Origin: an uncultured Clostridia bacterium
GTDB lineage: Bacteria; Bacillota; Clostridia; Oscillospirales; Acutalibacteraceae
DNA: 24,911 nt
Assembly (NCBI GenBank): GCA_946006915.1
Contig: CAMFZK010000001.1
Coordinates: 1-24,911 of the forward strand
Reading direction: 5' to 3'
Shown here: one piece after another, positions 1,827-17,392 of the stretch
Layout: every line of letters begins with the position of its first letter
How positions within the stretch are numbered: the stretch's first letter is position 1
Notes under the pieces: generated by a model
Told to the model about the DNA's origin: nothing
The model's input: the letters and a program-made list of their open reading frames with translations, nothing else
Database searches by the model: none
Program-made: the position numbers and the translations under genes

Positions 1827-1845
1827 TATTAAAAGGAGTAATATT

Positions 1846-2547: not shown

Positions 2548-2571
2548 TTAAAGTTTAAACTCAAATGAATC

Positions 2572-2608
2572 AGAAAGGGCTTTCGATTAGGTCGAAAGTC
2601 CTTTCTTT
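2572..2608 (+). terminator. Rho-independent terminator after the sortase module
   Basis: 15-bp stem AGAAAGGGCTTTCGA (2572-2586) / TCGAAAGTCCTTTCT (2592-2606) with one G.U pair and a 5-nt loop, ending in a T-rich tail. Confidence 0.8.
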
Positions 2609-2717
2609 AAATCAAAATTGGGGCGGAAAACCGTTATAAATTAAGTCTTTATAGCCGTTTTCGTTAATTTTTACATTTAAAAACTACATATTTCGCTAAA
2701 ATTATATATATTTGTAC

Positions 2718-2735
2718 TTGTTAAATCTATCACAA
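2718..2735. promoter_or_regulatory. Rex-like operator 1, overlapping the -35 box
   Basis: TTGTTAA-ATCT-ATCACAA: 18-bp imperfect palindrome matching the Rex consensus TTGT(G/T)AA-N4-TT(C/A)ACAA with one mismatch. Confidence 0.7.
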
Positions 2736-2746
2736 TATGGTATAAT
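2718..2746 (+). promoter_or_regulatory. Sigma-A promoter of the mdh-hdr-flx-frd-fum operon
   Basis: TTGTTA (2718-2723), 17-bp spacer, TATAAT (2741-2746) with extended -10 TG at 2738-2739. Confidence 0.75.
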
Positions 2747-2760
2747 ATATATTCGGTAAA

Positions 2761-2778
2761 ATGTTAAAATTTTAACAA
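2761..2778. promoter_or_regulatory. Rex-like operator 2, between the predicted transcription start and the RBS
   Basis: ATGTTAA-AATT-TTAACAA. It contains a perfect 16-bp palindrome (2762-2777) and differs by one base from TTGTTAA-N4-TTAACAA. Confidence 0.75.
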
Positions 2779-2794
2779 AGAAAGGAAAATATCA

Positions 2795-3742
2795 ATGGGC
2801 AGAAAAATTACTATTATCGGTGCAGGCAGCGTAGGTGCTACTATTGCATACGCATTATCTTTTACGGATATTGCTTCGGAAATTGTTTTGTTGGACATTA
2901 ACAAAGAAAAGGTTGAAGGCGAGGTTATGGATATTAACCAAGGTACCGCTTTCAGAGCGCCTATTTCTTTTGTTGCAGGCGAATATGAGGACGCAAAAGG
3001 TTCGGACATTGTAATCATCACTTCGGGTATTGCAAGAAAACCCGGTCAAACCAGAATTGAACTTACACAAACCAATGTTGAAATTCTTAAAAGCATCACT
3101 CCGAATATCGTTAAGGTTTGTCCGGACTCACTTTACATAATAGTAAGCAACCCTGTTGATATTATGACCTATGTATTTACAAAAATTTCGGGCATTCCCG
3201 AAAAACAAATTATCGGTTCGGGTACACTTTTGGATACTGCACGCCTTCGTTGCGGTATGTCAAAACATTTTGATGTTGCCCAAAACAATATTCACGCTTA
3301 CGTTTTCGGTGAACACGGTGACACTTCGTTCATTCCGTGGTCGGCGGCGTATATTTCGGGCGTATCTTTAGAAGAATACGAAAAACTTATGAAAGAAAAG
3401 GTAGCCGGCTTCCCCGATTTTAATAAAGACGATATGTATACCTACGTTCGCACTTCGGGCGGTGAAATTATCAACAAAAAAGGTGCTACATATTACGCAG
3501 TATCTACCTCTGTTTGCAACCTTTGCAGTATTCTTTGCGCTTCTAACGATTCTATTACAACCGTTTCCACAATGATGCACGGCGAATACGGTATTGAAGA
3601 TGTATGTTTAAGCACATTAACCCTTTTAGGACCTAACGGTGCACAGGGTAAAGTGCCTATGCGTCTTACCGATGAAGAAGTAGCAAAATTAAAGCACAGT
3701 GCCGACTCACTTAAAAATGTTATTTCTCAAATCAAATTATAA
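2795..3742 (+). CDS. mdh: LDH/MDH-family dehydrogenase, probably NADH-dependent malate dehydrogenase
   Basis: GAGSVG Rossmann motif with the NAD-type Asp (LLDIN), NPVD, LDTAR and GEHGD catalytic motifs. The substrate loop GIARKPGQTR has Arg at LDH position 102 (malate type) rather than Gln. It sits in an operon with fumarase and fumarate reductase. Confidence 0.8.
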   Translation: MGRKITIIGAGSVGATIAYALSFTDIASEIVLLDINKEKVEGEVMDINQGTAFRAPISFVAGEYEDAKGSDIVIITSGIARKPGQTRIELTQTNVEILKSITPNIVKVCPDSLYIIVSNPVDIMTYVFTKISGIPEKQIIGSGTLLDTARLRCGMSKHFDVAQNNIHAYVFGEHGDTSFIPWSAAYISGVSLEEYEKLMKEKVAGFPDFNKDDMYTYVRTSGGEIINKKGATYYAVSTSVCNLCSILCASNDSITTVSTMMHGEYGIEDVCLSTLTLLGPNGAQGKVPMRLTDEEVAKLKHSADSLKNVISQIKL

Positions 3743-3762
3743 TACATATAGGAGTATGTAAA

Positions 3763-4542
3763 ATGAAGTACAGTTATTATCCGGGTTGTACCCTAAAAAC
3801 AAAAGCAAAAGATTTGGATATGTACGCACGGCTTTCGGCAAAAGAATTGGGCTTTGAATTGGAAGAAATTGAAAACTGGCAATGTTGCGGCGGTGTTTAT
3901 CCGCTGGGTGCTGACGAAATCGGTTCTAAACTTTCTTCGGTTCGTGCGCTTAACTACGCTAAAGAAAAGGGGCAGGATTTAGTAACCCTTTGTTCGGCTT
4001 GCCACCACGTTATTAAGCGTGTTAATGACGATATAAAGAATGTGGAAGATATTAGAAACCGTGCTAATAACTATATGAAGTTGGAAGAACCCTATGCGGG
4101 TGAAACCGAAGTGCTGCACTTTTTGGAAGTACTTCGTGACCGAGTTGGGTTTGATAATTTGAAAAAAGCGGTTAAAAAGCCCTTAACCGGCAGAAAAATT
4201 GCGGCATATTATGGTTGTCTGCTTTTAAGACCCAGCAAGGTTTTAGCGTTTGATAATCCCGAAAACCCCACAATTATTGAAGATTTTATAAAAGCAATCG
4301 GGGCTACCCCGGTTGTATACCCTTACCGTAACGAATGTTGCGGCGGCTATATTTCACTTAAAGACGGCGAAAAAGCACAAAATATGTGCGAAAAAATAAT
4401 GGAAAGTGCAAGCGGTTTCGGCGCAGAAATGCTTATTACCGCCTGTCCGCTTTGTCTTTACAATCTTAACAAATGCGGAAAGTTGCCGGTAGTTTACTTT
4501 ACCGAACTTTTGGCAGAAGCATTAGGAATAAAGGAGGATTAG
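3763..4542 (+). CDS. hdrB: Heterodisulfide reductase subunit B-like protein (two CCG domains)
   Basis: YYPGC...CCGG...CSAC and YYGC...CCGG...CPLC: all ten Cys that ligate the two non-cubane [4Fe-4S] clusters. Confidence 0.92.
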   Translation: MKYSYYPGCTLKTKAKDLDMYARLSAKELGFELEEIENWQCCGGVYPLGADEIGSKLSSVRALNYAKEKGQDLVTLCSACHHVIKRVNDDIKNVEDIRNRANNYMKLEEPYAGETEVLHFLEVLRDRVGFDNLKKAVKKPLTGRKIAAYYGCLLLRPSKVLAFDNPENPTIIEDFIKAIGATPVVYPYRNECCGGYISLKDGEKAQNMCEKIMESASGFGAEMLITACPLCLYNLNKCGKLPVVYFTELLAEALGIKED

Positions 4543-4543
4543 T

Positions 4544-4930
4544 ATGAGTACCGTGAATAAAGCGGAGTTGATTAAAGAAATCAGCGGTGTTAATCCGCTT
4601 AAATGTATGAAGTGCGGTAAGTGTTCCGCTTCCTGTCCTTCTTTTAACGAAATGGATATTAAACCCCATCAGTTTGTGTCTTATGTGGTAAACGGCGATA
4701 TTGAAGCGCTCGTAAATTCGGCATCGCTTACTAAATGCCTTTCCTGTTTTGCCTGTATAGAGCGTTGCCCCCGTGACGTTAAACCCGCAAAACTTATCGA
4801 TGCGGCAAGACAGCTTGTTATAAGACAAAAAGGTGAAACTATGTTGTCACCCAATGAAATTCCCGAACTTTTAGACCCCGAAACACCCCAACAGTTGTTG
4901 GTAAGTGCATTCAGAAGATACAGGAGGTGA
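4544..4930 (+). CDS. hdrC: Heterodisulfide reductase subunit C-like 2x[4Fe-4S] protein (short)
   Basis: CMKCGKCSASCP and CLSCFACIERCP; lies between hdrB and hdrA. Confidence 0.88.
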   Translation: MSTVNKAELIKEISGVNPLKCMKCGKCSASCPSFNEMDIKPHQFVSYVVNGDIEALVNSASLTKCLSCFACIERCPRDVKPAKLIDAARQLVIRQKGETMLSPNEIPELLDPETPQQLLVSAFRRYRR

Positions 4931-4934
4931 GAGT

Positions 4935-6923
4935 ATGCAAAGAATAGGTGTATTTGTATGTCACTGCGGAAGTAACATCGCCGCTACGGTTGACGTTAAA
5001 AAAGTCGTAGAAATGGTTAAAACCGAACCCGGCGTTATCCATGCGGAAGATTATCAGTATATGTGTTCCGAAGCCGGTCAGGCAAAAATTATTGAAGCCG
5101 TAAAAGAACATAAATTAAACGGTCTTGTTGTTTGCTCCTGCTCTCCCCGTATGCACGAGGCAACCTTCCGTAAATGTGCCGAAAGAGCCGGCATAAACCC
5201 TTATATGGTGGAAATTGCCAACATTCGTGAACACTGTTCTTGGATACATAAGGATATGGACGAGGCAACCGAAAAAGCCGTTATTTTGGCACGTGCCGCT
5301 ATTGCAAAGGTTAACCTTAACGCTCCCTTGCAAGCAGGCGAAAGCGGTGTTGTTAAACGTGCGCTGGTAATAGGCGGCGGTATTGCGGGTATTCAAACCG
5401 CACTTGACATTGCCGATGCGGGTTTCCCGGTTGACATTGTTGAAAAAGAACCCAGTATAGGCGGAAGAATGTCACAACTTGACAAAACTTTCCCCACACT
5501 TGACTGTTCGGCGTGTATTTTAACCCCTAAAATGGTTGAAGCGGCCGCTCATCCCAATATCACAATTCACACCTACAGTGAAGTTGAAAATGTTTCCGGT
5601 TTTGTGGGCAACTTTACGGTTGAAATCCGCAAAAAAGCAAGAAGCATTGATATGGATAAATGTACAGGTTGCGGACTTTGTCAGGAAAAATGCCCGATGA
5701 AGAAAACCCCCAGCGAGTTTAACCGCGGACTTGGAAACAGAAGTGCAATTTACACACCTTTTGCACAGGCAATTCCGAATGTTCCGGTTATTGACCGTAA
5801 CGCCTGTCTTAAATTTAAAACCGGCAAATGCGGTATTTGTTCAACCGTTTGTGCCGCAGGCGCTATTGACTATACCCAGGTTGACACAATGGTAACCGAA
5901 AAATACGGTGCTATTGTTGTTGCAACCGGTTTTGATATGATTAAACTTGATAAGTATGACGAATACGCATACTCACAAAGCAAGGACGTTATTACTTCTT
6001 TGGAATTAGAGCGTGTTATGAACGCCGCAGGTCCTACAAAGGGACATCTTGAACGGCTTTCGGACGGTAAAGCACCTAAAGAAATAGTATTTATTCAATG
6101 TGTCGGCTCCCGTTGTGCGGACGGCAGAGGAAAGGGTTACTGCTCTAAAATTTGCTGTATGTATACCGCAAAACACGCAATGCTTATCCGTGATAAATAC
6201 CCCGATGTTAATGTAACGGTGTTTTATATTGACGTTCGTACTCCCGGTAAGAACTTTGACGAATTTTACCGCCGTGCAGTTGAAAATTACGGTGTAAATT
6301 ATGTTAAAGGTCAGGTTGGTAAGGTAATTCCGCAGCCAGACGGAAAACTTTTGGTTCAAGGTGTAGATTTAATAGATAACAAGCAAATTCTGAAGGAAGC
6401 CGATATGGTAGTGCTTGCCGCCGCTATTGAGCCAAACCCCGACGTTAGAAAGATTGCTACAATGTTGACCGCAAGTATTGATAACGACAACTTCTTAACC
6501 GAAGCACACGCAAAATTGCGTCCTGTTGAATCACCTACTGCCGGTATTTTCCTTTCGGGTGTTTGCCAAGGACCTAAAGACATTCCCGAAACGGTAGCAC
6601 AGGCAGGTGCGGCAGCAGTTAAGGCAATCGGTCTTTTGGCTAAAGATAAACTTATGACCAACCCCTGTACCGCTAAATCGGACGAACTTTTGTGTAACGG
6701 TTGTTCAAAATGTGCCAATGTTTGTCCTTACGGCGCAATTTCTTACGAAGTTAAGGAAATTAACGACCACGGTATAAGAGAAACCAGAAGAGTAGCACAG
6801 GTTAATAACGCACTCTGTCAAGGTTGCGGTGCTTGTACCGTTGCCTGTCCTTCGGGCGCTATGGACTTGCAGGGCTTCTCTAACAGACAGATTATAGCGG
6901 AGGTAGATGCAATATGCCGATAA
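4935..6923 (+). CDS. hdrA: Heterodisulfide reductase subunit A (FAD, multiple [4Fe-4S]; electron-bifurcating subunit)
   Basis: FVCHCG, CSCSPR and NIREHCSW N-terminal domain; VIGGGIAG FAD motif; KTFPTLDCSAC; inserted and C-terminal ferredoxin motifs; FIQCVGSR...CSKICCMY. Start moved from 4905 to ATG 4935, which follows GGAGGTGA (4923-4930). Confidence 0.95.
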   Translation: MQRIGVFVCHCGSNIAATVDVKKVVEMVKTEPGVIHAEDYQYMCSEAGQAKIIEAVKEHKLNGLVVCSCSPRMHEATFRKCAERAGINPYMVEIANIREHCSWIHKDMDEATEKAVILARAAIAKVNLNAPLQAGESGVVKRALVIGGGIAGIQTALDIADAGFPVDIVEKEPSIGGRMSQLDKTFPTLDCSACILTPKMVEAAAHPNITIHTYSEVENVSGFVGNFTVEIRKKARSIDMDKCTGCGLCQEKCPMKKTPSEFNRGLGNRSAIYTPFAQAIPNVPVIDRNACLKFKTGKCGICSTVCAAGAIDYTQVDTMVTEKYGAIVVATGFDMIKLDKYDEYAYSQSKDVITSLELERVMNAAGPTKGHLERLSDGKAPKEIVFIQCVGSRCADGRGKGYCSKICCMYTAKHAMLIRDKYPDVNVTVFYIDVRTPGKNFDEFYRRAVENYGVNYVKGQVGKVIPQPDGKLLVQGVDLIDNKQILKEADMVVLAAAIEPNPDVRKIATMLTASIDNDNFLTEAHAKLRPVESPTAGIFLSGVCQGPKDIPETVAQAGAAAVKAIGLLAKDKLMTNPCTAKSDELLCNGCSKCANVCPYGAISYEVKEINDHGIRETRRVAQVNNALCQGCGACTVACPSGAMDLQGFSNRQIIAEVDAICR

Positions 6924-7351
6924 ATAAAGAATTTAAACCGAAAATTGTTGCCTTTTGCTGTAACTGGTGCTCTTATGCAGGTGCAGATTTAGCAGGAAGC
7001 AGCCGTCTTGCTTATCCGGCAGACGTTAAAATTATTAAGGTGCCTTGTTCTTGCCGTGTAAACCCAATGTTTATTCTCCGTGCATTTGAAAAAGGTGCAG
7101 ACGGTGTTATAATGTGCGGTTGCCACCCCGGTGACTGCCACTATTCAACCGGTAACTACTATGCCCGCAGAAGAATGACCTTGCTTTTCTCAATGCTTGA
7201 CTATATGGGTGTTGAAAACGGCAGAACCCGTGTTGAATGGGTATCTGCGGCAGAGGGTGTTAAATTTTCTACTACAATGAACGAATTTGTAGAAAAGATT
7301 TATTCACTCGGTGAAAATGTAAGATTGGGGGATTTAAGATGCAAAAAATAG
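6914..7351 (+). CDS. flxD: MvhD-type [2Fe-2S] adaptor subunit (FlxD)
   Basis: FCCNWCSYAGADLAG, PCSCRV and GCHPGDCHY are MvhD/FlxD hallmarks; overlaps the hdrA stop by 10 nt. Confidence 0.9.
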   Translation: MPINKEFKPKIVAFCCNWCSYAGADLAGSSRLAYPADVKIIKVPCSCRVNPMFILRAFEKGADGVIMCGCHPGDCHYSTGNYYARRRMTLLFSMLDYMGVENGRTRVEWVSAAEGVKFSTTMNEFVEKIYSLGENVRLGDLRCKK

Positions 7352-8301
7352 TTGAAAGAGCAAAAGAACTTTTGGCTGACGGCACCGTAAACCGTGTGCT
7401 CGGTTGGAAAAAAGGCGATATGTGTTTTAACCCCGAACCCGCTTTTTTTGAAACCGCCGAAGATTTGGACGAAAATTTTGTATACGGCGGATTTTGCGGC
7501 GCAAATTTAAGCAAATATATGATAGATGCCTCTAAATTAGAGGGTAAAACTTTGGTTTTGCTGAAACCCTGTGATACATACAGTTTTAACCAACTTATTA
7601 ACGAACACCGTGTAGACCGTGAAAAAGCATATATTATCGGCGTTGGCTGTAAGGGTAAACTTAACATTGAAACAATTAAGCAGAGCGGTGTTAAAGGTAT
7701 TTTAAATATTACCGAAAACGGCGATATGCTTAACATTGAAACCCTTTACGGCAATACCGAAATGAAATATTCCGACGCTTTGCTTGAACGTTGCCACGTT
7801 TGTAAAGGCAAAGAACATAAAATTTATGACGAGTTAATCGGCGAATCGCAGGACACAAGCGACAGAGAACGTTTTGCAGAGGTTGAAAAAATCGAAAAAA
7901 TGTCACCTGAAGAAAAGTTTGCTTTCTTCCAAAAGGAATTAAGCAAATGTATCCGCTGCAACGCCTGCCGTAATGTTTGCCCGGCTTGCAGTTGCAGAAA
8001 ATGCGTGTTTGACAGTACAAAGTTTGATTCTTCACAAAAAGCAAACACCGATTCGTTTGAAGAAAAAATGTTCCACATAATCCGTGCGTTCCACGTAGCG
8101 GGCAGATGTACCGACTGCGGCGAATGTTCACGTGTATGTCCGCAGGGCATTCCGCTTCACCTATTTAACCGTAAATTTATTAAAGATATTAACGAATTTT
8201 ACGGCGAATACCAAGCAGGTGCCGATGTAGATGCCAAAGGTCCGCTTACCGAATATACTTTCGGTGACTGTGAACCGAGCATCGTTAAAGAGAGGGGATA
8301 A
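7339..8301 (+). CDS. flxC: FlxC-like Fe-S protein (FdhB/FrhB-related, 4Fe-4S dicluster)
   Basis: KPCD, GVGC, CHVC, CIRCNACRNVCPACSCRKC and HVAGRCTDCGECSRVCP; position within flxDCBA. Confidence 0.8.
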   Translation: MQKIVERAKELLADGTVNRVLGWKKGDMCFNPEPAFFETAEDLDENFVYGGFCGANLSKYMIDASKLEGKTLVLLKPCDTYSFNQLINEHRVDREKAYIIGVGCKGKLNIETIKQSGVKGILNITENGDMLNIETLYGNTEMKYSDALLERCHVCKGKEHKIYDELIGESQDTSDRERFAEVEKIEKMSPEEKFAFFQKELSKCIRCNACRNVCPACSCRKCVFDSTKFDSSQKANTDSFEEKMFHIIRAFHVAGRCTDCGECSRVCPQGIPLHLFNRKFIKDINEFYGEYQAGADVDAKGPLTEYTFGDCEPSIVKERG

Positions 8302-8304
8302 TGT

Positions 8305-9333
8305 ATGAAAAAAATTGCTAAATCCAATTTATCGGCATTATTCGCCAAGATAAACGAAACCAAAGACCTTTATGTGCCGGTTAAAAACGGCGAACAGGTA
8401 AACTTTGCCGCTTACAGCGAAGAAGCAGAAGTTGATTTAACCGCCCTTAAAACCGTTAAATCCCCTAAAGATGCCTTCTTCCCCCAAAGCGAAAACCTTT
8501 ACACCTGCTTTAACGAACAGGGCAAAATTTCAATCACCCCCGAAGAATTACAGGACAAAGATTTTGTGGTTTTCGGTATGAAAGCGTGCGACATTAAGGG
8601 TATTGAAGTACTTGATAAAGTATTTTTATCCGAACCGGTGGACAGTTTCTATGCCGCAAGACGTCAACACGGTATTATCGTAGGTCTTGCTTGCGATAAG
8701 CCGGAAGAATCCTGTTTTTGTACCGTTTTCGGTATAAACCCTGCCGAACCTACCGCCGATGTTGCGGTTTATGATGATGAAGACTTCCTTTATTGGAACG
8801 CTTTAACCGAAAAGGGCAACGCTTTGACCGAAACTCTTTGCGACCTTTTGGAAGATGCAGATAATACCGCAGTAGAAAACAAGAAAAAGGAAATAACGGC
8901 AATAGCCGAAAAACTCCCTTATGCTAATCTTTCGCTTGAGGGTTGGAACGGTGACGCTTTAACCGAAAAGTTTGACTCGCCTATATGGGAAGAACTTTAC
9001 AAACCCTGCCTTGCTTGCGGTACTTGTACTTTCTCTTGTCCTACCTGTCAATGTTACGATATTAAGGACTATAACACCGGCAACGGCATTAAGCGTTACC
9101 GTTGTTGGGATTCTTGTATGTATTCCGACTTTACAATGATGGCACACGGCAACAACCGTACAAGCCAAATGCAAAGATTCCGTCAAAGATTTATGCACAA
9201 ACTTGTTTACTTCCCCGCAAATAACGACGGGATGTATTCCTGCGTCGGTTGCGGACGCTGTGTAGACAAATGCCCCCAAAACCTTAACATTGTAAAGGTA
9301 ATTAAAGCATTTGAAAAAGGAGGAAAAGCGTAA
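8305..9333 (+). CDS. flxB: FlxB-like Fe-S protein (AsrA / sulfhydrogenase beta-like)
   Basis: KACD, CDKPEESCFC, CLACGTCTFSCPTCQC, RCWDSC, RFRQRFMHK and CVGCGRCVDKCP. Confidence 0.82.
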   Translation: MKKIAKSNLSALFAKINETKDLYVPVKNGEQVNFAAYSEEAEVDLTALKTVKSPKDAFFPQSENLYTCFNEQGKISITPEELQDKDFVVFGMKACDIKGIEVLDKVFLSEPVDSFYAARRQHGIIVGLACDKPEESCFCTVFGINPAEPTADVAVYDDEDFLYWNALTEKGNALTETLCDLLEDADNTAVENKKKEITAIAEKLPYANLSLEGWNGDALTEKFDSPIWEELYKPCLACGTCTFSCPTCQCYDIKDYNTGNGIKRYRCWDSCMYSDFTMMAHGNNRTSQMQRFRQRFMHKLVYFPANNDGMYSCVGCGRCVDKCPQNLNIVKVIKAFEKGGKA

Positions 9334-10187
9334 TGTGTGACTGTGATTGCCATAAGAATTATAATTTAGATACACTTATTCCGTTAGTCGGCGTTATTAC
9401 CGATATTAAAGAACAAACGCCCGACGTCAAAACTTTCCGTGTAAACGCTTTAGAGGGCGGAAAACTTTTTGAACACAAGCCCGGTCAATGCGCAATGCTT
9501 TGTGCGCCCGGTGTAAGCGAGGGAATGTTCTCTATAACATCTTCGCCCACAAATAAGGAATATCAGGAATTCAGCATTAAAAGATGCGGTCAACTCACCG
9601 AATATTTACATTCCCTAAAGGTTGGCGACCAAATCACCGTAAGAGGACCTTACGGCAACAACTTCCCCGTTGATACGGAACTTAAAGGCAAAAACCTTTT
9701 GTTTATTGCGGGCGGTATAGGTCTTGCACCTTTGCGTTCGGTAATTAACTATGTAATAGACAACCGCCAAGATTACGGCACAGTTGATATTCTTTACGGT
9801 TCACGTTCGGCAGATGACCTTGTAGGTCTTGACGAAATTCAAAATGTTTGGATGAACACTCCCGGTATAAATGTTCACCTTACAATCGACCGTGAGCAAG
9901 AGGGTTGGGACGGTCACGTTGGTTTTGTTCCCTCTTATTTAAGGGAGTTGGAATTTTCCAACGACAAAACCGTTTTGGTTTGCGGACCTCCTATTATGAT
10001 TAAGTTTGTTTTACAGGGATTACAGGAAATGGGCTTTACAAAAGAACAGGTTTACACAACACTTGAACTTCGTATGAAGTGCGGTGTCGGTAAATGCGGA
10101 CGCTGTAATATCGGCTCTAAATACGTTTGTAAAGACGGTCCGGTATTCCGTTTTGACGAAATTGACGAATTACCTAACGAGTATTAA
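9333..10187 (+). CDS. flxA: FlxA-like FAD/NAD(P)H-binding oxidoreductase with [2Fe-2S] (AsrB/PyrK-like)
   Basis: PGQ, FSITSSP, VRGPYGN, AGGIGLAPLRS, CGPPIM and the C-terminal MKCGVGKCGRC...VCKDGP motif. Confidence 0.85.
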   Translation: MCDCDCHKNYNLDTLIPLVGVITDIKEQTPDVKTFRVNALEGGKLFEHKPGQCAMLCAPGVSEGMFSITSSPTNKEYQEFSIKRCGQLTEYLHSLKVGDQITVRGPYGNNFPVDTELKGKNLLFIAGGIGLAPLRSVINYVIDNRQDYGTVDILYGSRSADDLVGLDEIQNVWMNTPGINVHLTIDREQEGWDGHVGFVPSYLRELEFSNDKTVLVCGPPIMIKFVLQGLQEMGFTKEQVYTTLELRMKCGVGKCGRCNIGSKYVCKDGPVFRFDEIDELPNEY

Positions 10188-10204
10188 GAAAGGTGTAACT
10201 GAAA

Positions 10205-10879
10205 ATGGAAAATATGGTTAATGTATTTTTTTACGGCAAAAAATATTCCGTACCCGCAGACCTTACTATTATGACTGCTATGGAGTATGCCGGATATACC
10301 CTTAAAAGAGGATGCGGTTGCCGTCACGGTTTTTGCGGTGCCTGTGCTACCATTTACCGCATTAAGGGCGACAATGAACTTAAAACCTGTCTTGCTTGCC
10401 AAACACAGGTACAGGAAGGTATGTATGTTGCAAGCATTCCCTTCTTCCCGACCGATAAAAGAACCTACAATATTAACGAGATTAAACCCACCAATCAAAT
10501 AATGATGGAACTTTATCCTGAAATTTACAGTTGTATCGGCTGTAACGCTTGTACAAATGCCTGCACACAGGGTCTTAACGTTATGCAGTATATTGCTTAT
10601 GCACAGCGTGCCGATTTTGAAAAGTGTGCCGAAGAATCTTTCGACTGTGTAGGTTGCGGATGTTGTTCTACAAGATGTCCCGCAGGTATTTCCCATCCTA
10701 TGGTTGGCTTGCTTGCCCGCCGTCTTACCGGTAAATATATCGCTCCCGAAACCGAACACCTTAAAAACAGGGTTGAAGAAATCAACAGGGGCGAATATGA
10801 CGAACTGATTGAACAAATTATGCAAAAACCCATTACAGAAATGCAAGAACTTTACAACACAAGAGAAATTGAGAAATAA
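10205..10879 (+). CDS. frdB: Fumarate reductase iron-sulfur subunit ([2Fe-2S] + 2x[4Fe-4S]; FrdB / TfrB N-terminal-like)
   Basis: CRHGFCGAC...CLAC ([2Fe-2S]), CIGCNACTNAC and CVGCGCCSTRCP; directly upstream of the flavoprotein. Confidence 0.8.
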   Translation: MENMVNVFFYGKKYSVPADLTIMTAMEYAGYTLKRGCGCRHGFCGACATIYRIKGDNELKTCLACQTQVQEGMYVASIPFFPTDKRTYNINEIKPTNQIMMELYPEIYSCIGCNACTNACTQGLNVMQYIAYAQRADFEKCAEESFDCVGCGCCSTRCPAGISHPMVGLLARRLTGKYIAPETEHLKNRVEEINRGEYDELIEQIMQKPITEMQELYNTREIEK

Positions 10880-10892
10880 GGAGGCGCTTAAT

Positions 10893-12503
10893 ATGTATAC
10901 ACCGTATCCGGAAAATATGATGGAATCCATCAAAAAAGTGGAAGCGTCCAGACAGGCGCGTATGGCAACAGAACCAAGACGTTTAACTGCTGATGAAAAA
11001 GATAACCTTTTAAAAGAATTCCATCCGGACTATAAACCGGAAGCATTTGCAGAAATCAAAGTCGGCCCCAACAAAGGTGAAAAAGCTCCGTTGGAATTGG
11101 CAAATATGCTTCATTCTACAAGCCGTATTTGTGGCGAAAACATTGATCTTACTAAAGTGGATTATGATGTGGATGTACTTGTTATCGGCGGCGGCGGAGC
11201 AGGTTCTTCCTGTGCTATCGAAGCGCATGAAGCAGGCGCAAATGTTATGATCGTAACAAAACTTCGTATTGGTGACGCTAATACAATGATGGCCGAAGGC
11301 GGTATTCAGGCAGCGGATAAAGAAAACGATTCTCCGGTACAGCATTACCTTGACTGTTTCGGCGGCGGACATTTTGCGGCCAAACCCGAACTTGTTAAGA
11401 AACTGGTTATGGAGGCACCCGATGCAATTAAATGGTTAAATGAACTTGGTGTTGAGTTTGACAAAGAAGAAGACGGCACTATGATTACTACTCACGGCGG
11501 CGGTACTTCAAGAAAGAGAATGCACGCCGCTAAGGATTATTCCGGTGCAGAAATTATGCGTACCTTGCGTGATGAAGTTATCAACCGCGGTATTCCCGTT
11601 GTAGAATTCACTTCTGCGGTAGAACTTATTAAAGATGATAAGGGTCAAGTTGCCGGTGCAGTTCTTCTTAATATGGAAACCGGCGACTATATGGTAGCAC
11701 GTGCTAAAACCGTTGTTATTGCTACCGGCGGTGCCGGAAGAATGCATTATCAAGGTTTCCCGACATCCAACCACTACGGCGCAACGGCTGACGGTCTTGT
11801 ATTGGGTTACAGAGCAGGCGCTAAACTTTTATATCAGGATTCTATTCAGTATCACCCAACAGGAGCAATCTATCCTTCACAAATTCTCGGAGCATTAGTT
11901 ACCGAAAAGGTTCGTTCTGTAGGCGCTCAATTGGTAAACGGCGAAGGCGAAGCATATATTCACCCATTGGAAACCCGTGATGTAAATGCATCGGGTGTTA
12001 TTCGTGAATGTGCCGAAGGCCGTGGCGTTGATGTTCCGGGCGGCGCAAAGGGTGTATGGCTTGATACTCCCATGATTGAAATTCTCGGCGGAGAAGGAAC
12101 TATTGAAAAGAGAATTCCGGCAATGTTCCGTATGTATATGAACTACGGCATTGATATGCGTAAAGTTCCGATTTTGATTTATCCTACACTTCATTATCAA
12201 AACGGCGGTCTTGAAATCGGCGGGGACGGATTTACAAAAAATATTGAAAATCTCCTGGTTGCAGGTGAAGCCGTTGGCGGTATCCACGGAAGAAACCGTC
12301 TTATGGGTAACTCACTTCTTGATATTATCGTTTTCGGCCGTAATGCAGGTAAAGCGGCGGCTAAAAAGTCACAAGAGGTTACTTTGGGCGAATTAACCCT
12401 TTCGCATATTGAAGATTACGCAAAAGAACTTAAAGCCGCAGGAGTAGAAACAAATGAAGTTTCTCCGCTCTTGCTTCCTAAATATGCCCGTCACGAAAGG
12501 TAG
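10893..12503 (+). CDS. frdA: Fumarate reductase flavoprotein subunit (soluble, predicted non-covalent FAD)
   Basis: VLVIGGGGAG, TMMAEGG, QYHPTG, TEKVR, LETRDV, PTLHYQNGG and HGRNRLMGNSL retain the dicarboxylate-site His/Glu/Arg set. Start moved from 10809 to ATG 10893, which follows AAGGAGG. Confidence 0.88.
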   Translation: MYTPYPENMMESIKKVEASRQARMATEPRRLTADEKDNLLKEFHPDYKPEAFAEIKVGPNKGEKAPLELANMLHSTSRICGENIDLTKVDYDVDVLVIGGGGAGSSCAIEAHEAGANVMIVTKLRIGDANTMMAEGGIQAADKENDSPVQHYLDCFGGGHFAAKPELVKKLVMEAPDAIKWLNELGVEFDKEEDGTMITTHGGGTSRKRMHAAKDYSGAEIMRTLRDEVINRGIPVVEFTSAVELIKDDKGQVAGAVLLNMETGDYMVARAKTVVIATGGAGRMHYQGFPTSNHYGATADGLVLGYRAGAKLLYQDSIQYHPTGAIYPSQILGALVTEKVRSVGAQLVNGEGEAYIHPLETRDVNASGVIRECAEGRGVDVPGGAKGVWLDTPMIEILGGEGTIEKRIPAMFRMYMNYGIDMRKVPILIYPTLHYQNGGLEIGGDGFTKNIENLLVAGEAVGGIHGRNRLMGNSLLDIIVFGRNAGKAAAKKSQEVTLGELTLSHIEDYAKELKAAGVETNEVSPLLLPKYARHER

Positions 12504-12511
12504 GAATTATA

Positions 12512-13354
12512 ATGCGTGAAATAAATGTAAGTGTTCTTACAGACGTTATTGAAAAACTTTGTATCGAAGCAAATGTTCATTTGCCGAGCGACGTTAAATG
12601 CGCTATTAAAACCTGCCGTAAATGTGAGGACGGTGTTATAGCACAGGGCGTTTTGGATAATATTATTGAAAATTTCCAAATTGCCGATAACGAAAATGTC
12701 CCCATTTGTCAGGACACAGGTATGGCTTGCGTTTTTCTTGAAATCGGTCAGGACGTTCACCTTGTAGGCGGCGATTTAACCGAAGCCGTAAACGAAGGTG
12801 TACGCCGAGGATACGATAAAGGTTACCTTAGAAAATCGGTTGTAAAAGACCCTATCAGAAGAGGTAACACGGGTGACAATACCCCCGCAATGCTTTATAC
12901 CGAAATTGTTCCGGGCGAAAATATTAAAATTACTGTTGGTCCTAAAGGTTTCGGCAGTGAAAATATGAGTATGATTAGAATGTTTAAACCCTCTGCAGGG
13001 CTCCAGGGTATTAAAGATTTCATACTCGAAGTAGTTGAAACCGCAGGCCCTAACCCCTGCCCTCCTATGGTTGTGGGTGTCGGTATAGGCGGCACATTCG
13101 ATAAATGTGCCTTACTTGCCAAAAAAGCGTTAATGCGTCCGCTTGATTCTAAAAACCCCGACCCTTACTATGCTGATTTGGAAGAGGAAATGCTCGAAAA
13201 AATCAATATGCTGGGTATCGGCCCTCAAGGTTTCGGCGGTAAAACCACCGCAATCGGGCTTAATATTGAAACATTGCCTACACATATTGCGGGTATGCCC
13301 TGTGCGGTTAATATTAACTGCCACGTAACACGTCATAAAACGGAGGTAATTTAA
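12512..13354 (+). CDS. Class I (Fe-S) fumarate hydratase, alpha subunit (TtdA/FumA N-terminal-like)
   Basis: PICQDTG, GYLRKSVV, KGFGSEN, NPCPP, GIGPQGFGGKTT and HIAGMPCAVNINCHVTRH. Confidence 0.9.
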   Translation: MREINVSVLTDVIEKLCIEANVHLPSDVKCAIKTCRKCEDGVIAQGVLDNIIENFQIADNENVPICQDTGMACVFLEIGQDVHLVGGDLTEAVNEGVRRGYDKGYLRKSVVKDPIRRGNTGDNTPAMLYTEIVPGENIKITVGPKGFGSENMSMIRMFKPSAGLQGIKDFILEVVETAGPNPCPPMVVGVGIGGTFDKCALLAKKALMRPLDSKNPDPYYADLEEEMLEKINMLGIGPQGFGGKTTAIGLNIETLPTHIAGMPCAVNINCHVTRHKTEVI

Positions 13355-13355
13355 A

Positions 13356-13913
13356 ATGATTAAAAAAATTAACTTACCTTTAACAGCGGAATTGGCAAAA
13401 ACCTTAAAAGCGGGCGACGAAGTATTGCTTACCGGCACTATTTATACCTCCCGTGATGCAGGTCATAAAAGAATGTGTGAATCTTTGGCAAAGGGCGAGC
13501 CGCTGCCCTTTGACCCTACAGATGCTACCATCTACTACGTAGGTCCTACCCCCGCAAAACCGGGTGCCGTAATCGGCTCGGCAGGTCCTACAACCTCCGG
13601 CAGAATGGACGCTTATGCTCCTACTATGATGTCGGTAGGTGCAAGAGGTATGATTGGTAAAGGCGCTCGTTTACCCGAAGTGGTTGAGGCAATGAAAAAA
13701 TACAACGGTGTTTATTTCGGCGCTATCGGCGGTGCGGGTGCGTTGCTTGCTAAATGCATTAAATCGGCAGAACTTATTGCTTTTGAAGATTTAGGTGCAG
13801 AAGCACTTCGCAAACTTTATGTAGAAGATATGCCGTTGGTTGTTATTATCGACAGCGAGGGTAACAACCTTTACGAAAACGGCAGAAAAGCATATTTAGA
13901 ACAACGTAAATAA
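13356..13913 (+). CDS. Class I fumarate hydratase, beta subunit
   Basis: TSRDAGHKR, YYVGPTP, GPTTSGRMD, MIGKG and EDLGAEA. Confidence 0.9.
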   Translation: MIKKINLPLTAELAKTLKAGDEVLLTGTIYTSRDAGHKRMCESLAKGEPLPFDPTDATIYYVGPTPAKPGAVIGSAGPTTSGRMDAYAPTMMSVGARGMIGKGARLPEVVEAMKKYNGVYFGAIGGAGALLAKCIKSAELIAFEDLGAEALRKLYVEDMPLVVIIDSEGNNLYENGRKAYLEQRK

Positions 13914-13927
13914 GAAGGGTTAAGAAA

Positions 13928-15178
13928 ATGAAATTATTTGGCGGTGTTGTTTCGGTTAGCGGAATAACATTCTTAATGTTTGCAGTTTTTGTAATTGCCG
14001 TTTTGGGTTACGCCTTGGGCAGAGTTAATATTAAAGGCGTTTCTTTAGGTACGGCAGGCGTATTTATAGTTGCACTTCTTTTCGGTGCATTATTTTCTAA
14101 AACTTTAAGCGGTACTGTAATCCAAACCGTAAACGGTGCGGCTGTGGATATCAGCGGTAATGCCTTAAAAATAGTAGAAAACATAGGGCTTATACTGTTC
14201 GTAACATCGGTTGGTTTTATAGCAGGCCCCAGTTTCTTTAAAGATTTAAAGAAAAACTATAAGTCATATATCCTTTTGGGTATTGTAATTATTCTTATGG
14301 GCGGTTTAACCTGTCTTTCGTGTTACTTTGTAGGCCGTAATTTTACCGACCTTTCGGCAAAACAGTTTATGGCTATTTGCGTTGGTCTTCTTTCGGGTGC
14401 TTTAACAAGTACCCCCGCTTTCTCGGCGTCAAAAGCAACCGTTGCACCCGAATTTGAAGAACTCGTAACGGTTGGTAACGGTATTGCTTACATTTTCGGC
14501 GTTATCGGGGTTGTGTTGTTCGTTCAACTTATCCCCAAAATCGTTAAAGCCGATATGGAAAAGGAAGCAAAAAAACTTGTAGTAGAAACCAAAGCCGAAA
14601 CAGTAAATGTAAAGAAAAAATGTTTTGAAATGGACGATTTCGGTTTATTCGCTTTCGGTCTTGCCGCTGTGGTTGGCGTGTTTGTGGGTGCAATTAAAAT
14701 ACCTATGTCTTCACAGGGTCTTTCGGGCACTACCTTCTCCTTAACCACAACCGGCGGTGCGCTTCTAACCGCACTGGTATTCGGTCATTTCGGTCAAATC
14801 GGCCTTTTGAGTTTAAGGGTGGATAATAAAACCCTTAAAACTTTCCGTGAACTCGGTTTAATGCTTTTCTTAATCGGTGCAGGTATTGCCGGCGGAACAA
14901 AGTTTGTTACCTACTTCAAACCCGTTTACTTCCTGTACGGTGCTTTAATGACTATTGTTCCTATGATAGTTGGCTTCCTTTTTGCAAAGTATGTTTTAAA
15001 GTTAAGTCTTTTAAACAACTTGGGTTCTATTACCGGCGGTATGACAAGTACCCCCGCATTGGGAACACTTATAAATGTTGCCAAAACCGAAAACATTGCC
15101 TCTGCCTATGCCGCAACCTATCCGATTGCGCTTATCGCAGTAGTGCTTGTTTCCCAATTCCTAATAATTTTATTCTAA
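13928..15178 (+). CDS. AspT/YidE/YbjL (aspartate:alanine exchanger) family transporter; candidate succinate exporter
   Basis: Multi-pass hydrophobic protein with the duplicated repeat motifs GLLSGALTSTPA and GSITGGMTSTPALG, plus SLGTAGVFIVAL, LILFVTSVGFIAGPSFF and YAATYP. Confidence 0.85.
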   Translation: MKLFGGVVSVSGITFLMFAVFVIAVLGYALGRVNIKGVSLGTAGVFIVALLFGALFSKTLSGTVIQTVNGAAVDISGNALKIVENIGLILFVTSVGFIAGPSFFKDLKKNYKSYILLGIVIILMGGLTCLSCYFVGRNFTDLSAKQFMAICVGLLSGALTSTPAFSASKATVAPEFEELVTVGNGIAYIFGVIGVVLFVQLIPKIVKADMEKEAKKLVVETKAETVNVKKKCFEMDDFGLFAFGLAAVVGVFVGAIKIPMSSQGLSGTTFSLTTTGGALLTALVFGHFGQIGLLSLRVDNKTLKTFRELGLMLFLIGAGIAGGTKFVTYFKPVYFLYGALMTIVPMIVGFLFAKYVLKLSLLNNLGSITGGMTSTPALGTLINVAKTENIASAYAATYPIALIAVVLVSQFLIILF

Positions 15179-15182
15179 AAAG

Positions 15183-15212
15183 TTTGCATCCTTTTTTAAG
15201 GATGCAAATTTT
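15183..15212 (+). terminator. Stem-loop, possibly a leaky terminator, between the transporter and hppA
   Basis: Perfect 11-bp stem TTTGCATCCTT / AAGGATGCAAA with a TTTT loop, followed by only four T. Confidence 0.6.
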
Positions 15213-15253
15213 CTAAAATATATTTTACATTTTCAACAGAAGGTGAAAAGATT

Positions 15254-17341: not shown

Positions 17342-17347
17342 TTTTTT

Positions 17348-17376: not shown

Positions 17377-17392
17377 ATATGAAACATAATAA

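Follow-up and report, generated by a model that had tools for sequence, protein, structure and literature searches.

Results

The window, by which we mean the whole 24,911-nt stretch of DNA analysed, comes from a gut Clostridia bacterium and carries 13 co-directional genes on the plus strand between positions 2795 and 15178 (Table 1). They follow each other in the order mdh-hdrB-hdrC-hdrA-flxD-flxC-flxB-flxA-frdB-frdA-fumA-fumB-AAEx transporter, and wherever neighbours are separated the gap does not exceed 20 nt. An earlier note, made from the sequence alone, had described these genes and their tight spacing; all of them were found in place and their identities are backed by Pfam and NCBIfam. 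The start of hdrA was assigned to the ATG at 4935, which is preceded by the ribosome binding site AGGAGGTG; a start at GTG 4905, which gives the longest ORF, would create an overlap with hdrC. Similarly, frdA starts at ATG 10893 behind AAGGAGG and not at TTG 10809. As the note had also stated, the plus-strand ORFs of at least 80 aa in the window, two of which gave no Pfam match, included no match to an FrdC/D or cytochrome b anchor, a hydrogenase large subunit, DsrC or a CoM/CoB gene. The remainder of the window is occupied by a sortase/LCP operon, a Na+-pyrophosphatase and a surface-polysaccharide cluster.

Table 1. Features of the operon on the plus strand, with the evidence for each and the spacing to the next gene
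Feature	Position	Strand	Length (aa)	Evidence	Junction to next gene
Promoter region, two Rex-like operators	2718..2778	+		sequence and promoter scan	
mdh, LDH-like NAD-dependent malate dehydrogenase	2795..3742	+	315	Ldh_1_N, Ldh_1_C domains	gap 20 nt
hdrB, two CCG domains	3763..4542	+	259	Pfam CCG matched twice	gap 1 nt
hdrC, 2x[4Fe-4S] ferredoxin-like subunit	4544..4930	+	128	Fer4 dicluster domains	gap 4 nt (to ATG 4935)
hdrA, FAD and multi-[4Fe-4S] flavoprotein	4935..6923	+	662 (from ATG)	match to 5ODC HdrA chain	overlap 10 nt
flxD, MvhD-like [2Fe-2S] connector	6914..7351	+	145	Pfam FlpD, E 6e-54	overlap 13 nt
flxC, iron-sulfur protein	7339..8301	+	320	4Fe-4S dicluster domain, residues 200-271	gap 3 nt
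flxB, iron-sulfur subunit	8305..9333	+	342	Pfam Fer4_22	overlap 1 nt
flxA, NAD(P)H-/FAD-binding subunit, [2Fe-2S] site	9333..10187	+	284	FAD_binding_6, NAD_binding_1, DHODB_Fe-S_bind	gap 17 nt
frdB, divergent fumarate reductase iron-sulfur subunit	10205..10879	+	224	Fer2_4, Fer4_7 domains	gap 13 nt
frdA, soluble fumarate reductase flavoprotein	10893..12503	+	536	Pfam FAD_binding_2	gap 8 nt
fumA, class I (Fe-S) fumarate hydratase alpha subunit	12512..13354	+	280	Pfam Fumerase, E 7e-118	gap 1 nt
fumB, class I fumarate hydratase beta subunit	13356..13913	+	185	Pfam Fumerase_C	gap 14 nt
AAEx-family transporter	13928..15178	+	416	Pfam Asp-Al_Ex twice; YidE/YbjL duplication domain	
Terminator-like hairpin, then TTTT	15183..15212	+		3' of the transporter gene	

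The promoter scan returned TTGTTA, a 17-nt spacer and TG-TATAAT. One Rex-like box (2718-2735) covers the -35 hexamer and differs from TTGTTAA-N4-TTAACAA at two positions, while a second (2761-2778) follows the -10 element with a single mismatch. Boxes with at most three mismatches lie within 350 nt upstream in 38 of 56 related loci, against an expectation of 0.04 per 350 nt of locus sequence. A rex gene was not found in the assembled genome, which is 75% complete, and was present in 5 of 5 operon-bearing relatives. High NADH would probably switch the operon on through Rex. The hairpin behind the last gene is a probable operon end or attenuation point.

The enzymes of the carbon route

The product of mdh scored above both the LDH and the MDH cut-offs of NCBIfam, so its naming as malate dehydrogenase rests on one residue and on context. 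This residue is Arg81 (G-I-A-R-K-P-G) at the position of Gln102 in true LDHs; the best PDB match has Arg there and the second, a true LDH, has Gln. FumA and FumB exceeded the cut-offs of the fumarate hydratase equivalog (414 versus 276 bits) and the Fe-S hydro-lyase equivalog (289 versus 238 bits), respectively. Tartrate dehydratase was considered for FumA and rejected, the score falling below the cut-off of that NCBIfam model. The transporter, which has no central TrkA_C domains, is a putative succinate exporter; a known succinate exporter belongs to the same family (PMC9527358). Its gene is a loose member of the operon, with varying position and 45-65% identity in relatives.

Hdr and Flx subunits

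HdrB has two CXnCCGXmCXXC motifs with all their cysteines in place (C9, C41, C42, C77, C80 and C152, C192, C193, C228, C231). Its best NCBIfam matches, both below cut-off, were SdhE (the MFR anchor) and HdrB, and its PDB matches were HdrB chains only. HdrC is short: of the 144 positions of the HdrC profile, its match covers 3-78 only. HdrA aligned over its full length with the 5ODC HdrA chain (E 9e-209; query residues 12-670, chain residues 4-649), and all cluster-binding Cys motifs matched, including those of the inserted and C-terminal ferredoxin domains. This alignment supports HdrA as the putative bifurcation site, of the full bifurcating type with every cofactor motif. FlxD also matched VhuD and the HdrA2 C-terminus, and FlxA matched HydG, AsrB and PyrK (all NCBIfam). 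The Flx-Hdr module is complete and without an anchor, in line with the earlier reading.

FrdA and FrdB

The AF2 model of FrdA (pLDDT 93.9) had E. coli FrdA as best fold match (1kf6_A, E 1e-36, approximately 450 columns). At its N-terminus FrdA is extended by a conserved stretch of some 90 aa; it lacks the C-terminal helical domain and carries Asn130 in place of the His that binds FAD covalently. FrdB combines a [2Fe-2S] motif (C39/C44/C47/C62) and two [4Fe-4S] motifs (C110/C113/C116/C120 and C148/C151/C154/C158) with a helical tail at the C-terminus. FrdB and SdhB proteins bind [3Fe-4S] at the position of the third motif, which here is a full four-Cys pattern. FrdB has no CCG domain; it aligned with positions 18-172 of TfrB (NCBIfam), and its similarity to E. 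coli FrdB and SdhB was weak.

Such a divergent FrdB, together with a FrdA that stays below every NCBIfam cut-off and scores nearly equally with L-aspartate oxidase and fumarate reductase models, would also fit a pair acting on another substrate, for example an enoate reductase of the aspartate-oxidase-like or some other kind, with succinate an illusion of context. Nevertheless, the fumarate-binding and proton-transfer residues of FrdA (H321-P322-T323, E338, R341, R362, H434 and R469) were invariant in 24 homologues, and MDH and fumarase lie inside the operon at nearly every related locus. Within the same operon frame, moreover, different lineages use for this role either class I fumarase (fumAB) or the non-homologous class II enzyme (fumC). 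L-aspartate oxidase is not known to work with an iron-sulfur partner. We therefore regard another substrate as very improbable, and FrdAB as a fumarate reductase. Together with the Arg81-type MDH, the class I fumarase and the AAEx transporter, it makes up a complete route from oxaloacetate to succinate and its export, as the note had proposed, and the 13-gene operon is genuine.

Conservation and spread of the operon

The order hdrBCA-flxDCBA-frdBA-fumAB was kept in 80 of 80 related loci, as far as the contigs reach. This type of FrdA occurred in 64 of 293 sampled Clostridia species (~22%). Among 300 Clostridia genomes drawn evenly, 66 carried the FrdA type and every one of these also had the orthologous HdrA; only one genome had the HdrA type without FrdA. 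The two genes were found on one contig, 5.5-6.3 kb apart, in 58 of the 66 carriers; in the other eight they were split at contig ends. Linkage of frd with hdr/flx is thus far above chance, and Frd and Hdr are co-inherited as one unit. According to the note, its proposal would be refuted if frd/fum and hdr/flx were mostly unlinked in relatives; the opposite was observed. The Hdr/Flx-linked, membrane-free fumarate reductase design is common in gut bacteria.

Predicted contact between HdrB and FrdB

A complex model of HdrB, HdrC and FrdB scored 0.78 compared with 0.02 for the best control, a pass that may partly reflect the resemblance of the ferredoxin-like domain of FrdB to HdrC, a known partner of HdrB. 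Of 80 solved complexes, 55 attained this mark, as did 3 of 110 mismatched pairs. One of the three runs scored 0.00, conservation at the predicted interface did not exceed that of the remaining residues, and no like complex was found among the solved structures matched by HdrB or FrdB in the PDB. In the model, the N-terminal CCG cysteines of HdrB face the FrdB cluster C110/C113/C116/C158, which supports a direct, cluster-to-cluster contact of the two subunits.

This predicted contact bears on a thiol-coupled scheme, in which Flx-Hdr bifurcation would have a disulfide as acceptor, either soluble or on a protein, as has been proposed with DsrC for sulfate reducers, and the resulting thiol would reduce fumarate through FrdAB, as in the archaeal thiol:fumarate reductase. 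The two intact CCG motifs of HdrB would suit this, as would the best NCBIfam match of FrdA, TfrA (334 bits, cut-off 718), and the alignment of FrdB with the N-terminal part of TfrB. However, the assembled genome yielded no CCG domains other than those of HdrB, so that one site would have to serve for both formation and consumption of the thiol, and DsrC was not found in the genome; such a shuttle could not be closed. The joint inheritance of Frd and Hdr likewise argues for direct transfer, as do a relative with 57% identity in which hdrB adjoins frdB and the TfrB protein, in which FrdB-like and HdrB-like parts are naturally fused. We consider thiol coupling improbable.

Discussion

We consider it moderately probable that Flx-Hdr-FrdAB performs an NADH-driven, bifurcating fumarate reduction that also charges ferredoxin. 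The operon would then encode a branch of fermentation that forms succinate in the cytoplasm and without quinones. Oxaloacetate would come from GTP-PEPCK, encoded outside the operon; MDH would reduce it with NADH to malate, class I fumarase would yield fumarate and soluble FrdAB succinate, which would leave via the AAEx protein. FlxA would take up electrons from NAD(P)H, which on its sequence could be either NADH or NADPH, and FlxB, FlxC and FlxD would relay them to the HdrA-bound FAD, where the pair would be split. One electron would go uphill via the ferredoxin domains of HdrA to ferredoxin, the other downhill via HdrC, the two non-cubane clusters of HdrB and then directly the [4Fe-4S] clusters of FrdB to the FAD that FrdA binds non-covalently. 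Overall, this would amount to 2 NADH + fumarate + oxidised ferredoxin -> 2 NAD+ + succinate + reduced ferredoxin. Given potentials of -320 mV for NADH, +33 mV for fumarate and approximately -420 to -500 mV for ferredoxin, this sum is exergonic. Rnf would re-oxidise the ferredoxin, so that fumarate reduction would yield an ion gradient without quinones. The donor (NADH), the second acceptor (ferredoxin), the stoichiometry and the part played by Rnf are inferences.

The genome, which is 75% complete, has Rnf-like genes, PFOR and GTP-PEPCK; a hydrogenase was not found in it. A UbiA/MenA-type prenyltransferase of quinone synthesis was detected in 14 of 14 control genomes and in neither the host genome nor three near-complete carriers.

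Alternatively, the complex may be a non-bifurcating NAD(P)H:fumarate reductase, with Flx/Hdr as a long wire, the energy lost as heat and ferredoxin left oxidised. A gammaproteobacterial FrdAB with 48% identity pairs with a single NuoF-like gene for an NADH module, hence the reductase can probably work without bifurcation. Hydrogenobacter thermophilus has a soluble five-subunit NADH-dependent fumarate reductase, as cited in PMC13147460, and in a study of Blautia luti frdAB was modelled as plainly NADH-dependent (PMC12773636). No ferredoxin-reduction assay was found in the searchable literature. The same gammaproteobacterial pairing implies, on the other hand, that seven extra subunits are unnecessary for mere electron transfer from NADH and superfluous for a plain wire. 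Over most of the related loci, which come from several families, HdrA is 83-96% identical and retains every cluster of its two ferredoxin domains, and the solved HdrA complexes found with the same architecture all belong to ferredoxin-linked Hdr enzymes. Furthermore, H2 abolishes succinate formation in Pseudoclostridium thermosuccinogenes (PMC7282089), as expected if ferredoxin must be re-oxidised. A plain wire thus appears rather unlikely.

To our knowledge, Flx-Hdr bifurcation is backed by genetics and analogy, and we know of no purified enzyme. The note's description of the system as biochemically undescribed holds for the searchable literature, in which no biochemical test or enzyme assay of this complex or any homologue was found. 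Neither the operon design nor the idea of the mechanism is new. The P. thermosuccinogenes precedent, named in the note together with the caution that the linkage might be known, is real: the same operon and mechanism were proposed in 2019-2020 along two independent lines, for this species (PMC7282089) and for sulfur-oxidising Gammaproteobacteria. In P. thermosuccinogenes the homologous operon rises about 4-fold under CO2 limitation (PMC7282089).

Among known systems, FlxB resembles sulfhydrogenase beta and AsrA (NCBIfam matches ShyB, HydB and AsrA). While the gammaproteobacterial FrdAB is joined to a lone NuoF-like gene, FrdAB is here joined to Hdr/Flx.

Gene content and organization of the operon

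The window spans one whole contig of a metagenome-assembled genome of 1.06 Mb, with a completeness of 75%. The earlier note had described a co-directional operon of 13 genes, which is borne out by the ORF positions and by matches to Pfam and NCBIfam models; all seven subunit types of Flx-Hdr are encoded together. For two genes the longest-ORF starts (TTG 10809 for frdA, GTG 4905 for hdrA) were dropped and ATG codons preceded by ribosome binding sites were preferred. The frdA gene starts at ATG 10893, preceded by AAGGAGG, and hdrA most likely at ATG 4935, preceded by AGGAGGTG. Given these two starts, all junctions within the operon are overlaps or gaps of at most 20 nt. Among the + strand ORFs of at least 80 aa in the window, two of which have no Pfam match, no gene for an anchor subunit, a hydrogenase, DsrC or coenzyme M/B was found, in agreement with the absence claimed previously.

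Features of the window and their coordinates
Feature	Position	Strand	Remarks
Sortase gene, LCP (LytR-CpsA-Psr) gene, 233-aa ORF without Pfam match	95-2547		Compact upstream operon
Terminator of the sortase/LCP operon	near 2570-2608
First Rex-like box	2718-2735
Second Rex-like box	2761-2778
Operon of 13 genes	2795-15178	+	Pfam/NCBIfam
Operon genes in order: LDH-like malate dehydrogenase; HdrB (two CCG domains); HdrC; HdrA; MvhD-like FlxD		+	Pfam/NCBIfam
Continued: iron-sulfur proteins FlxC and FlxB; FlxA (FAD/NAD(P)H/[2Fe-2S]); divergent FrdB; FrdA-type flavoprotein		+	Pfam/NCBIfam
End: class I fumarase alpha and beta subunits; AAEx-family transporter		+	Pfam/NCBIfam
Seven Flx-Hdr genes	3763-10187	+	Pfam/NCBIfam domain content
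Na+-translocating pyrophosphatase gene	15254-17341		NCBIfam equivalog passed
Strong terminator of the pyrophosphatase gene	17348-17372
Surface-polysaccharide cluster	17494-24759		329-aa ORF without Pfam match, GT1 and GT2 glycosyltransferases, Wzy-like polymerase/ligase, RmlA-, RmlB- and RmlD-like genes

The product of the first gene passes the equivalog cut-off for lactate dehydrogenase (LDH). Despite this, an LDH identity was ruled out by the operon context and by Arg81 (within G-I-A-R-K-P-G) at the substrate-specificity position, which is Gln102 in lactate dehydrogenases. Arg is also found at this site in the best PDB relative, and Gln in the next one, a true LDH. Both fumarase subunits exceed their NCBIfam equivalog cut-offs (alpha, 414 bits vs 276; beta, 289 vs 238) and represent the two-subunit class I (Fe-S) type, while tartrate dehydratase models score under their cut-offs. 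The AAEx protein possesses two Asp-Al_Ex membrane domains, lacks the central TrkA_C domains and reaches no equivalog cut-off. From its gene context and a known succinate exporter in the family, succinate is its putative substrate.

A hairpin followed by a T-run is located directly 3′ of the transporter gene. The pyrophosphatase gene further downstream was considered as a member of the operon and rejected, because a terminator-like hairpin lies in between and the gene is found beside the operon in only 1 of the best 80 related loci. Recent import was likewise rejected on base composition: the operon has 42.6% G+C vs 40.0% for the genome, inside the 95th percentile of 5-kb windows, and its GC3 equals that of the flanks. 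A low G+C content of 31-34% occurs between 18 and 22 kb, inside the surface-polysaccharide cluster.

Redox centers of HdrA, HdrB, FrdB and FrdA

HdrA residues 12-670 align end to end with the HdrA chain of PDB entry 5ODC (E 9e-209), and the FAD site and every [4Fe-4S] cysteine motif are aligned, including those of the inserted and the C-terminal ferredoxin domains. In HdrB both CXnCCGXmCXXC motifs are complete, and this protein is the sole source of CCG domains found in the assembled genome. FrdB shows weak similarity to solved SdhB/FrdB chains. Its [2Fe-2S] motif is SdhB-like (C-x4-C-x2-C-x14-C), and since two full four-cysteine motifs are present besides, two [4Fe-4S] clusters are predicted, not one [4Fe-4S] and one [3Fe-4S]. 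No CCG domain was found in FrdB by domain and motif analysis.

All tested elements of the active site are present in FrdA: the His of the HPT motif (H321-P-T), Glu and Arg of the TE-x-x-R loop, the proton-donor Arg, the second His and the C-terminal substrate Arg. The residues H321, E338, R341, R362, H434 and R469 are invariant over 24 homologues, down to 35% identity. The position of the flavinylated histidine (S-H-T-x-x-A-x-G-G context) is occupied by Asn130. The AlphaFold2 model of FrdA (pLDDT 93.9) is confident except for the final five residues, and among solved folds E. coli FrdA is nearest (E 1e-36). This alignment covers about 450 of the 536 residues and leaves an N-terminal extension of ~90 residues, 64-73% identical among 79 loci, without a counterpart; the C-terminal helical domain is absent from FrdA.

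Linkage of frd and hdr/flx among Clostridia

In a scan with one genome per species, at least 598 species records encode a relative. According to the earlier note, its reading would be refuted if frd and hdr/flx were mostly unlinked in related genomes. They are linked, and the reading withstands this check: in the best 80 of these loci the order hdrBCA-flxDCBA-frdBA-fumAB is kept in 80/80 as far as the contigs reach, with protein identities from about 59% (FlxB) to 97% (FlxD). These 80 loci include Lachnospiraceae, Oscillospiraceae and Acutalibacteraceae, and among them are the cultured genera Blautia, Fusicatenibacter, Sporofaciens and Ohessyouella. Cultured carriers, e.g. Blautia schinkii, Fusicatenibacter faecihominis and Sporofaciens musculi, make the proposal testable.

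To analyze co-inheritance, 300 Clostridia genomes were drawn evenly, 293 of them high-quality. The FrdA type occurs in 64 of the 293 high-quality genomes, with matches at least 63% identical that are full length or ended by a contig edge. All 66 non-self FrdA carriers in the draw also encode an HdrA that is at least 64% identical. It lies on the contig and strand of FrdA, 5.5-6.3 kb away, in 58 carriers and on a separate contig, at an assembly break, in the other 8. Only 1 genome in the draw has this HdrA type without FrdA, and the four remaining HdrA matches are of a different type (44-47% identical). The operon is common in gut Clostridia.

In the FrdA tree (90 rows), the window forms a clade with two Acutalibacteraceae genomes (SH-aLRT 96), which falls within a larger one of 24 rows (SH-aLRT 99); Lachnospiraceae make up 17 of the remaining rows there. 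The congeners are placed at the base, and three other Acutalibacteraceae group with Oscillospiraceae. From this topology, the fumAB-type operon appears to have spread laterally among gut Clostridia.

Operon variants and interchangeable partners of FrdAB

A second variant, mdh-fumC-hdrBCA-flxDCBA-frdBA-AAEx, is present at 54-79% identity in five loci from same-genus and same-order genomes (L087, L088, L089, L091, L093). Here, a class II fumarase (fumC) stands in for the class I alpha/beta pair. The occurrence of two unrelated fumarase classes in one operon frame is strong evidence for fumarate as the substrate, and that FrdAB acts on another substrate appears very improbable.

More distant homologues have other neighbors. 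On a metagenomic contig (L096, 811-9771) the order is korD-korA-korB-korC-hdrA-mvhD-hdrC-hdrB-frdB-frdA, with FrdA 57% identical to that of the window and hdrB directly adjoining frdB; this is the rTCA type of arrangement described by Rubin-Blum et al. In two gammaproteobacterial metagenome-assembled genomes (L094, 9366-12891; L095) an frdB-frdA pair of 48% identity has one NuoF-like gene behind it, with Complex1_51K, SLBB and NADH_4Fe-4S domains, in place of Hdr/Flx. This is a candidate three-subunit soluble NADH:fumarate reductase. One distant homologue record has frdA-frdB alone. The N-terminal FrdA extension is common to the Kor-linked, NuoF-linked and stand-alone distant homologues. The different neighbors (Flx-Hdr, Kor-Hdr, NuoF-like or none) indicate that FrdAB acts as a terminal module with interchangeable inputs, and one NADH-binding subunit seems to be sufficient for it where nothing more is wanted.

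Some further loci deviate. In a same-genus genome (G008), frdB-frdA stands alone (L090, 9964-12262), is 60-67% identical and sits on a long branch. It adjoins a gene for a 1267-aa YobI-like P-loop NTPase, with no hdr/flx within ~8 kb upstream, and may be a decaying or disrupted operon. In P0098 (675 aa) and P0128 (727 aa), FrdB-like Fe-S domains and the FrdA flavoprotein are joined in a single chain, through either natural FrdB-FrdA fusion or a read-through in gene calling.

Regulation and transcript data

The operon promoter has an extended -10 element and is bracketed by two Rex-like boxes with 2 and 1 mismatches to the clostridial Rex consensus. An upstream box (at most 3 mismatches, within 350 nt) occurs in 38 of 56 related loci, where 0.04 would be expected in 350 nt of locus sequence; the contrast is overstated by the coding-rich background used for the expectation. 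A rex gene was not found in the 75%-complete assembly, in which the single weak match is a DeoR-type regulator; rex is present in 5/5 operon-bearing relatives tested and located ~6 kb upstream of the operon in one of them.

In a bovine metatranscriptome (sequencing run X1, compared with window positions 2400-17600), contigs matched parts of mdh, hdrC, flxC, flxB, frdA and fumA, the closest at 98-99% identity. One contig bridges the frdA/fumA junction, and a contig on the pyrophosphatase gene is ~95% identical. Such assembler contigs may include DNA and thus demonstrate neither expression nor co-transcription. The organism or a close relative inhabits cattle.

Proposed mechanism and alternatives

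The earlier note had proposed Flx-Hdr electron bifurcation with fumarate as the acceptor. The operon, its linkage and its precedent support this proposal; the reduction of ferredoxin we infer. In the probable mechanism, which is bifurcating and directly wired, NAD(P)H would deliver electrons to FlxA, from where FlxB, FlxC and FlxD would pass them to the HdrA flavin. One electron would then reduce ferredoxin, and the other would travel via HdrC, HdrB, FrdB and FrdA to fumarate. Reduced ferredoxin would be reoxidized by Rnf, building an ion gradient. Established midpoint potentials make the net reaction exergonic.

The genomic context fits such a bifurcating model. The genome encodes two Rnf/Nqr-type membrane subunits (PF03116), PFOR, a GTP-dependent PEPCK and an oxaloacetate-decarboxylase/pyruvate-carboxylase-type domain. 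A UbiA/MenA-type quinone prenyltransferase was found neither here nor in three near-complete carriers, i.e. in 4/5 carrier genomes checked it was not found, and 14/14 control genomes have one. Rnf, PFOR and GTP-PEPCK together with the lack of a quinone prenyltransferase are consistent with the bifurcating model. A plain NAD(P)H:fumarate reductase without bifurcation is the simpler alternative; it gains from the gammaproteobacterial FrdAB pairs with their single NuoF-like gene, presumed to be non-bifurcating, and we regard it as rather unlikely for the operon.

How electrons would pass from Hdr to Frd was addressed by complex prediction. For HdrB, HdrC and FrdB the median score was 0.78 vs 0.02 for the best control, on a scale on which the mark was met by 55 of 80 solved complexes and by 3 of 110 mismatched pairs. 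Two of three runs shared 92% of contacts, and in these the FrdB cluster C110/C113/C116/C158 faces the N-terminal CCG cysteines of HdrB and the HdrC tail. PDB comparisons yielded no solved complex of this kind. Because the ferredoxin-like domain of FrdB resembles HdrC, the score supports FrdB-HdrB binding without demonstrating it. Interface conservation gave no added signal: within each protein, residues at the interface and elsewhere are conserved to the same degree. In the predicted docking, FrdB sits on HdrB's N-terminal CCG domain. Contact between the two is also supported by TfrB, a natural fusion of FrdB-like and HdrB-like CCG parts. A thiol shuttle between Hdr and Frd would instead run over a soluble or protein disulfide; direct wiring is favored by the TfrB fusion, by the predicted placement of FrdB on HdrB and by searches of the assembled genome, in which CCG domains were found in HdrB alone and no DsrC was found. 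The shuttle is quite improbable.

We tentatively extend the directly wired mechanism to a wider reading, as a possibility that we would not yet call probable. The two non-cubane clusters of HdrB might serve as a plain electron relay without disulfide chemistry, docked by the first [4Fe-4S] cluster of FrdB, so that a C=C bond would become the high-potential acceptor of an Hdr machine via protein-to-protein wiring. FrdAB might be a plug-in terminal module for Flx-Hdr, Kor-Hdr or NuoF-like inputs and, with Rnf, provide ~1/5 of Clostridia species, among them Blautia of the human gut and its relatives, with a quinone-free equivalent of fumarate respiration.

Novelty and implications

The operon and its mechanism have already been proposed in print as a prediction, and the window is a confirmatory further copy. 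We add the 66/66 co-inheritance count, the displacement between class I and class II fumarases, the NuoF-type and Kor-type partners of one FrdAB family, the quinone prenyltransferase not found in 4/5 carriers and the control-backed FrdB-HdrB docking model. The enzyme system had been said in the earlier note to appear biochemically undescribed; in the searchable literature, which mostly leaves subscription journals outside, no biochemical characterization of a Flx-Hdr-linked fumarate reductase was found, nor any paper with the exact phrase "electron-bifurcating fumarate reductase".

The biology is important and testable, though already proposed and common in gut Clostridia. If the mechanism is true, fumarate would be added to crotonyl-CoA, caffeyl-CoA and heterodisulfide among the high-potential acceptors in flavin-based electron bifurcation, and the energy gain from succinate formation in Clostridia without quinones or cytochromes would be explained. 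Succinate is a major cross-feeding and signaling metabolite in gut and rumen, and flux models of these habitats that use a plain NADH-dependent step may err by about half an ATP per succinate in their energy and redox balances.

Comparison with known systems

The closest system is the "succinate operon" of Pseudoclostridium (Hungateiclostridium) thermosuccinogenes, a precedent named in the earlier note that proved to be real. Its parts agree with those of the window: fumarase, Flx-Hdr encoded by seven genes, fumarate reductase encoded by two and a putative transporter for succinate (PMC7282089). Koendjbiharie et al. (2020) reported its ~4-fold induction at low CO2 and called the enzyme unique (PMC7282089). 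The mechanism, as rendered there, derives from the preprint of Koendjbiharie & van Kranenburg (2019; doi 10.20944/preprints201912.0288.v1). The proposed electron flow from NADH to fumarate and ferredoxin, as well as GTP-PEPCK, is common to P. thermosuccinogenes and the window genome (PMC7282089). An anchor-less frdAB together with flx-hdr and fumarase in one operon is a feature of the P. thermosuccinogenes type and is present in the window. In P. thermosuccinogenes the operon opens with the fumarase and closes with the transporter, whereas in the window mdh is first and the two-subunit class I fumarase follows frdA; the mdh-fumC-hdr-flx-frd-AAEx variant of the congeners has the published P. 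thermosuccinogenes order. Solely from the published gene description, we infer homology of the two operons.

In an independent proposal, Rubin-Blum et al. (2019) described tfrAB-flx-hdr-kor clusters in tubeworm symbionts and Thioflavicoccus mobilis (PMC6315080), for which a 2026 survey cites later co-expression support (PMC13147460). There, too, an anchor-less FrdAB (TfrAB) is interleaved with Flx-Hdr genes, and the complex was also proposed to bifurcate and to reduce fumarate and ferredoxin (PMC6315080, PMC13147460). Its role is autotrophic CO2 fixation, with ferredoxin serving 2-oxoglutarate synthase (rTCA), unlike the fermentative succinate excretion in the window, where mdh, fumarase and exporter belong to the operon.

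FlxABCD-HdrABC of Desulfovibrio vulgaris shares the seven protein types and, both as proposals, NADH as donor and ferredoxin as low-potential acceptor (Ramos et al. 2015, as cited in PMC7282089 and PMC6315080). The proposed high-potential acceptor in those citing accounts is the DsrC disulfide, whereas in the window genome no DsrC was found and FrdAB is present instead. The gene order also differs from hdrBCA-flxDCBA of the window.

Compared with methanogen MvhAGD-HdrABC (PDB 5ODC, 8RVU, 7BKB), the window has a full-length HdrA match and homologues of HdrB, HdrC and MvhD, with a shorter HdrC. Flx (NAD(P)H) takes the place of hydrogenase or formate dehydrogenase as donor module, and fumarate via FrdAB would be the acceptor rather than the CoM-S-S-CoB heterodisulfide. 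To our knowledge, CoM-SH and CoB-SH are absent from bacteria. These thiols are the donor of Methanothermobacter TfrAB (Heim et al. 1998, as cited in PMC6315080). Among NCBIfam models, archaeal TfrA fits FrdA best, yet the cut-offs are far from reached (334 bits vs 718; FrdB against TfrB, 30 vs 385), and the FrdB-like and HdrB-like parts joined in TfrB are separate genes in the window.

For Blautia luti, a 2026 study used methyl viologen alone to assay fumarate reductase activity, and its model treats the activity as NADH-dependent (PMC12773636). Soluble NADH-dependent enzymes include Hydrogenobacter FrdABCDE (Miura 2008) and those of Klebsiella and yeast, as cited in PMC13147460. With these and with E. 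coli FrdABCD (PDB 1KF6) the window enzyme shares the flavoprotein fold, the catalytic residues and the reduction of fumarate to succinate, but it has no anchor, no covalent-FAD histidine and a different electron input module. Two motifs for [4Fe-4S] clusters are present in FrdB of the window, where the compared enzymes have one [4Fe-4S] and one [3Fe-4S], and FrdA carries an extra N-terminal domain and lacks the C-terminal one.
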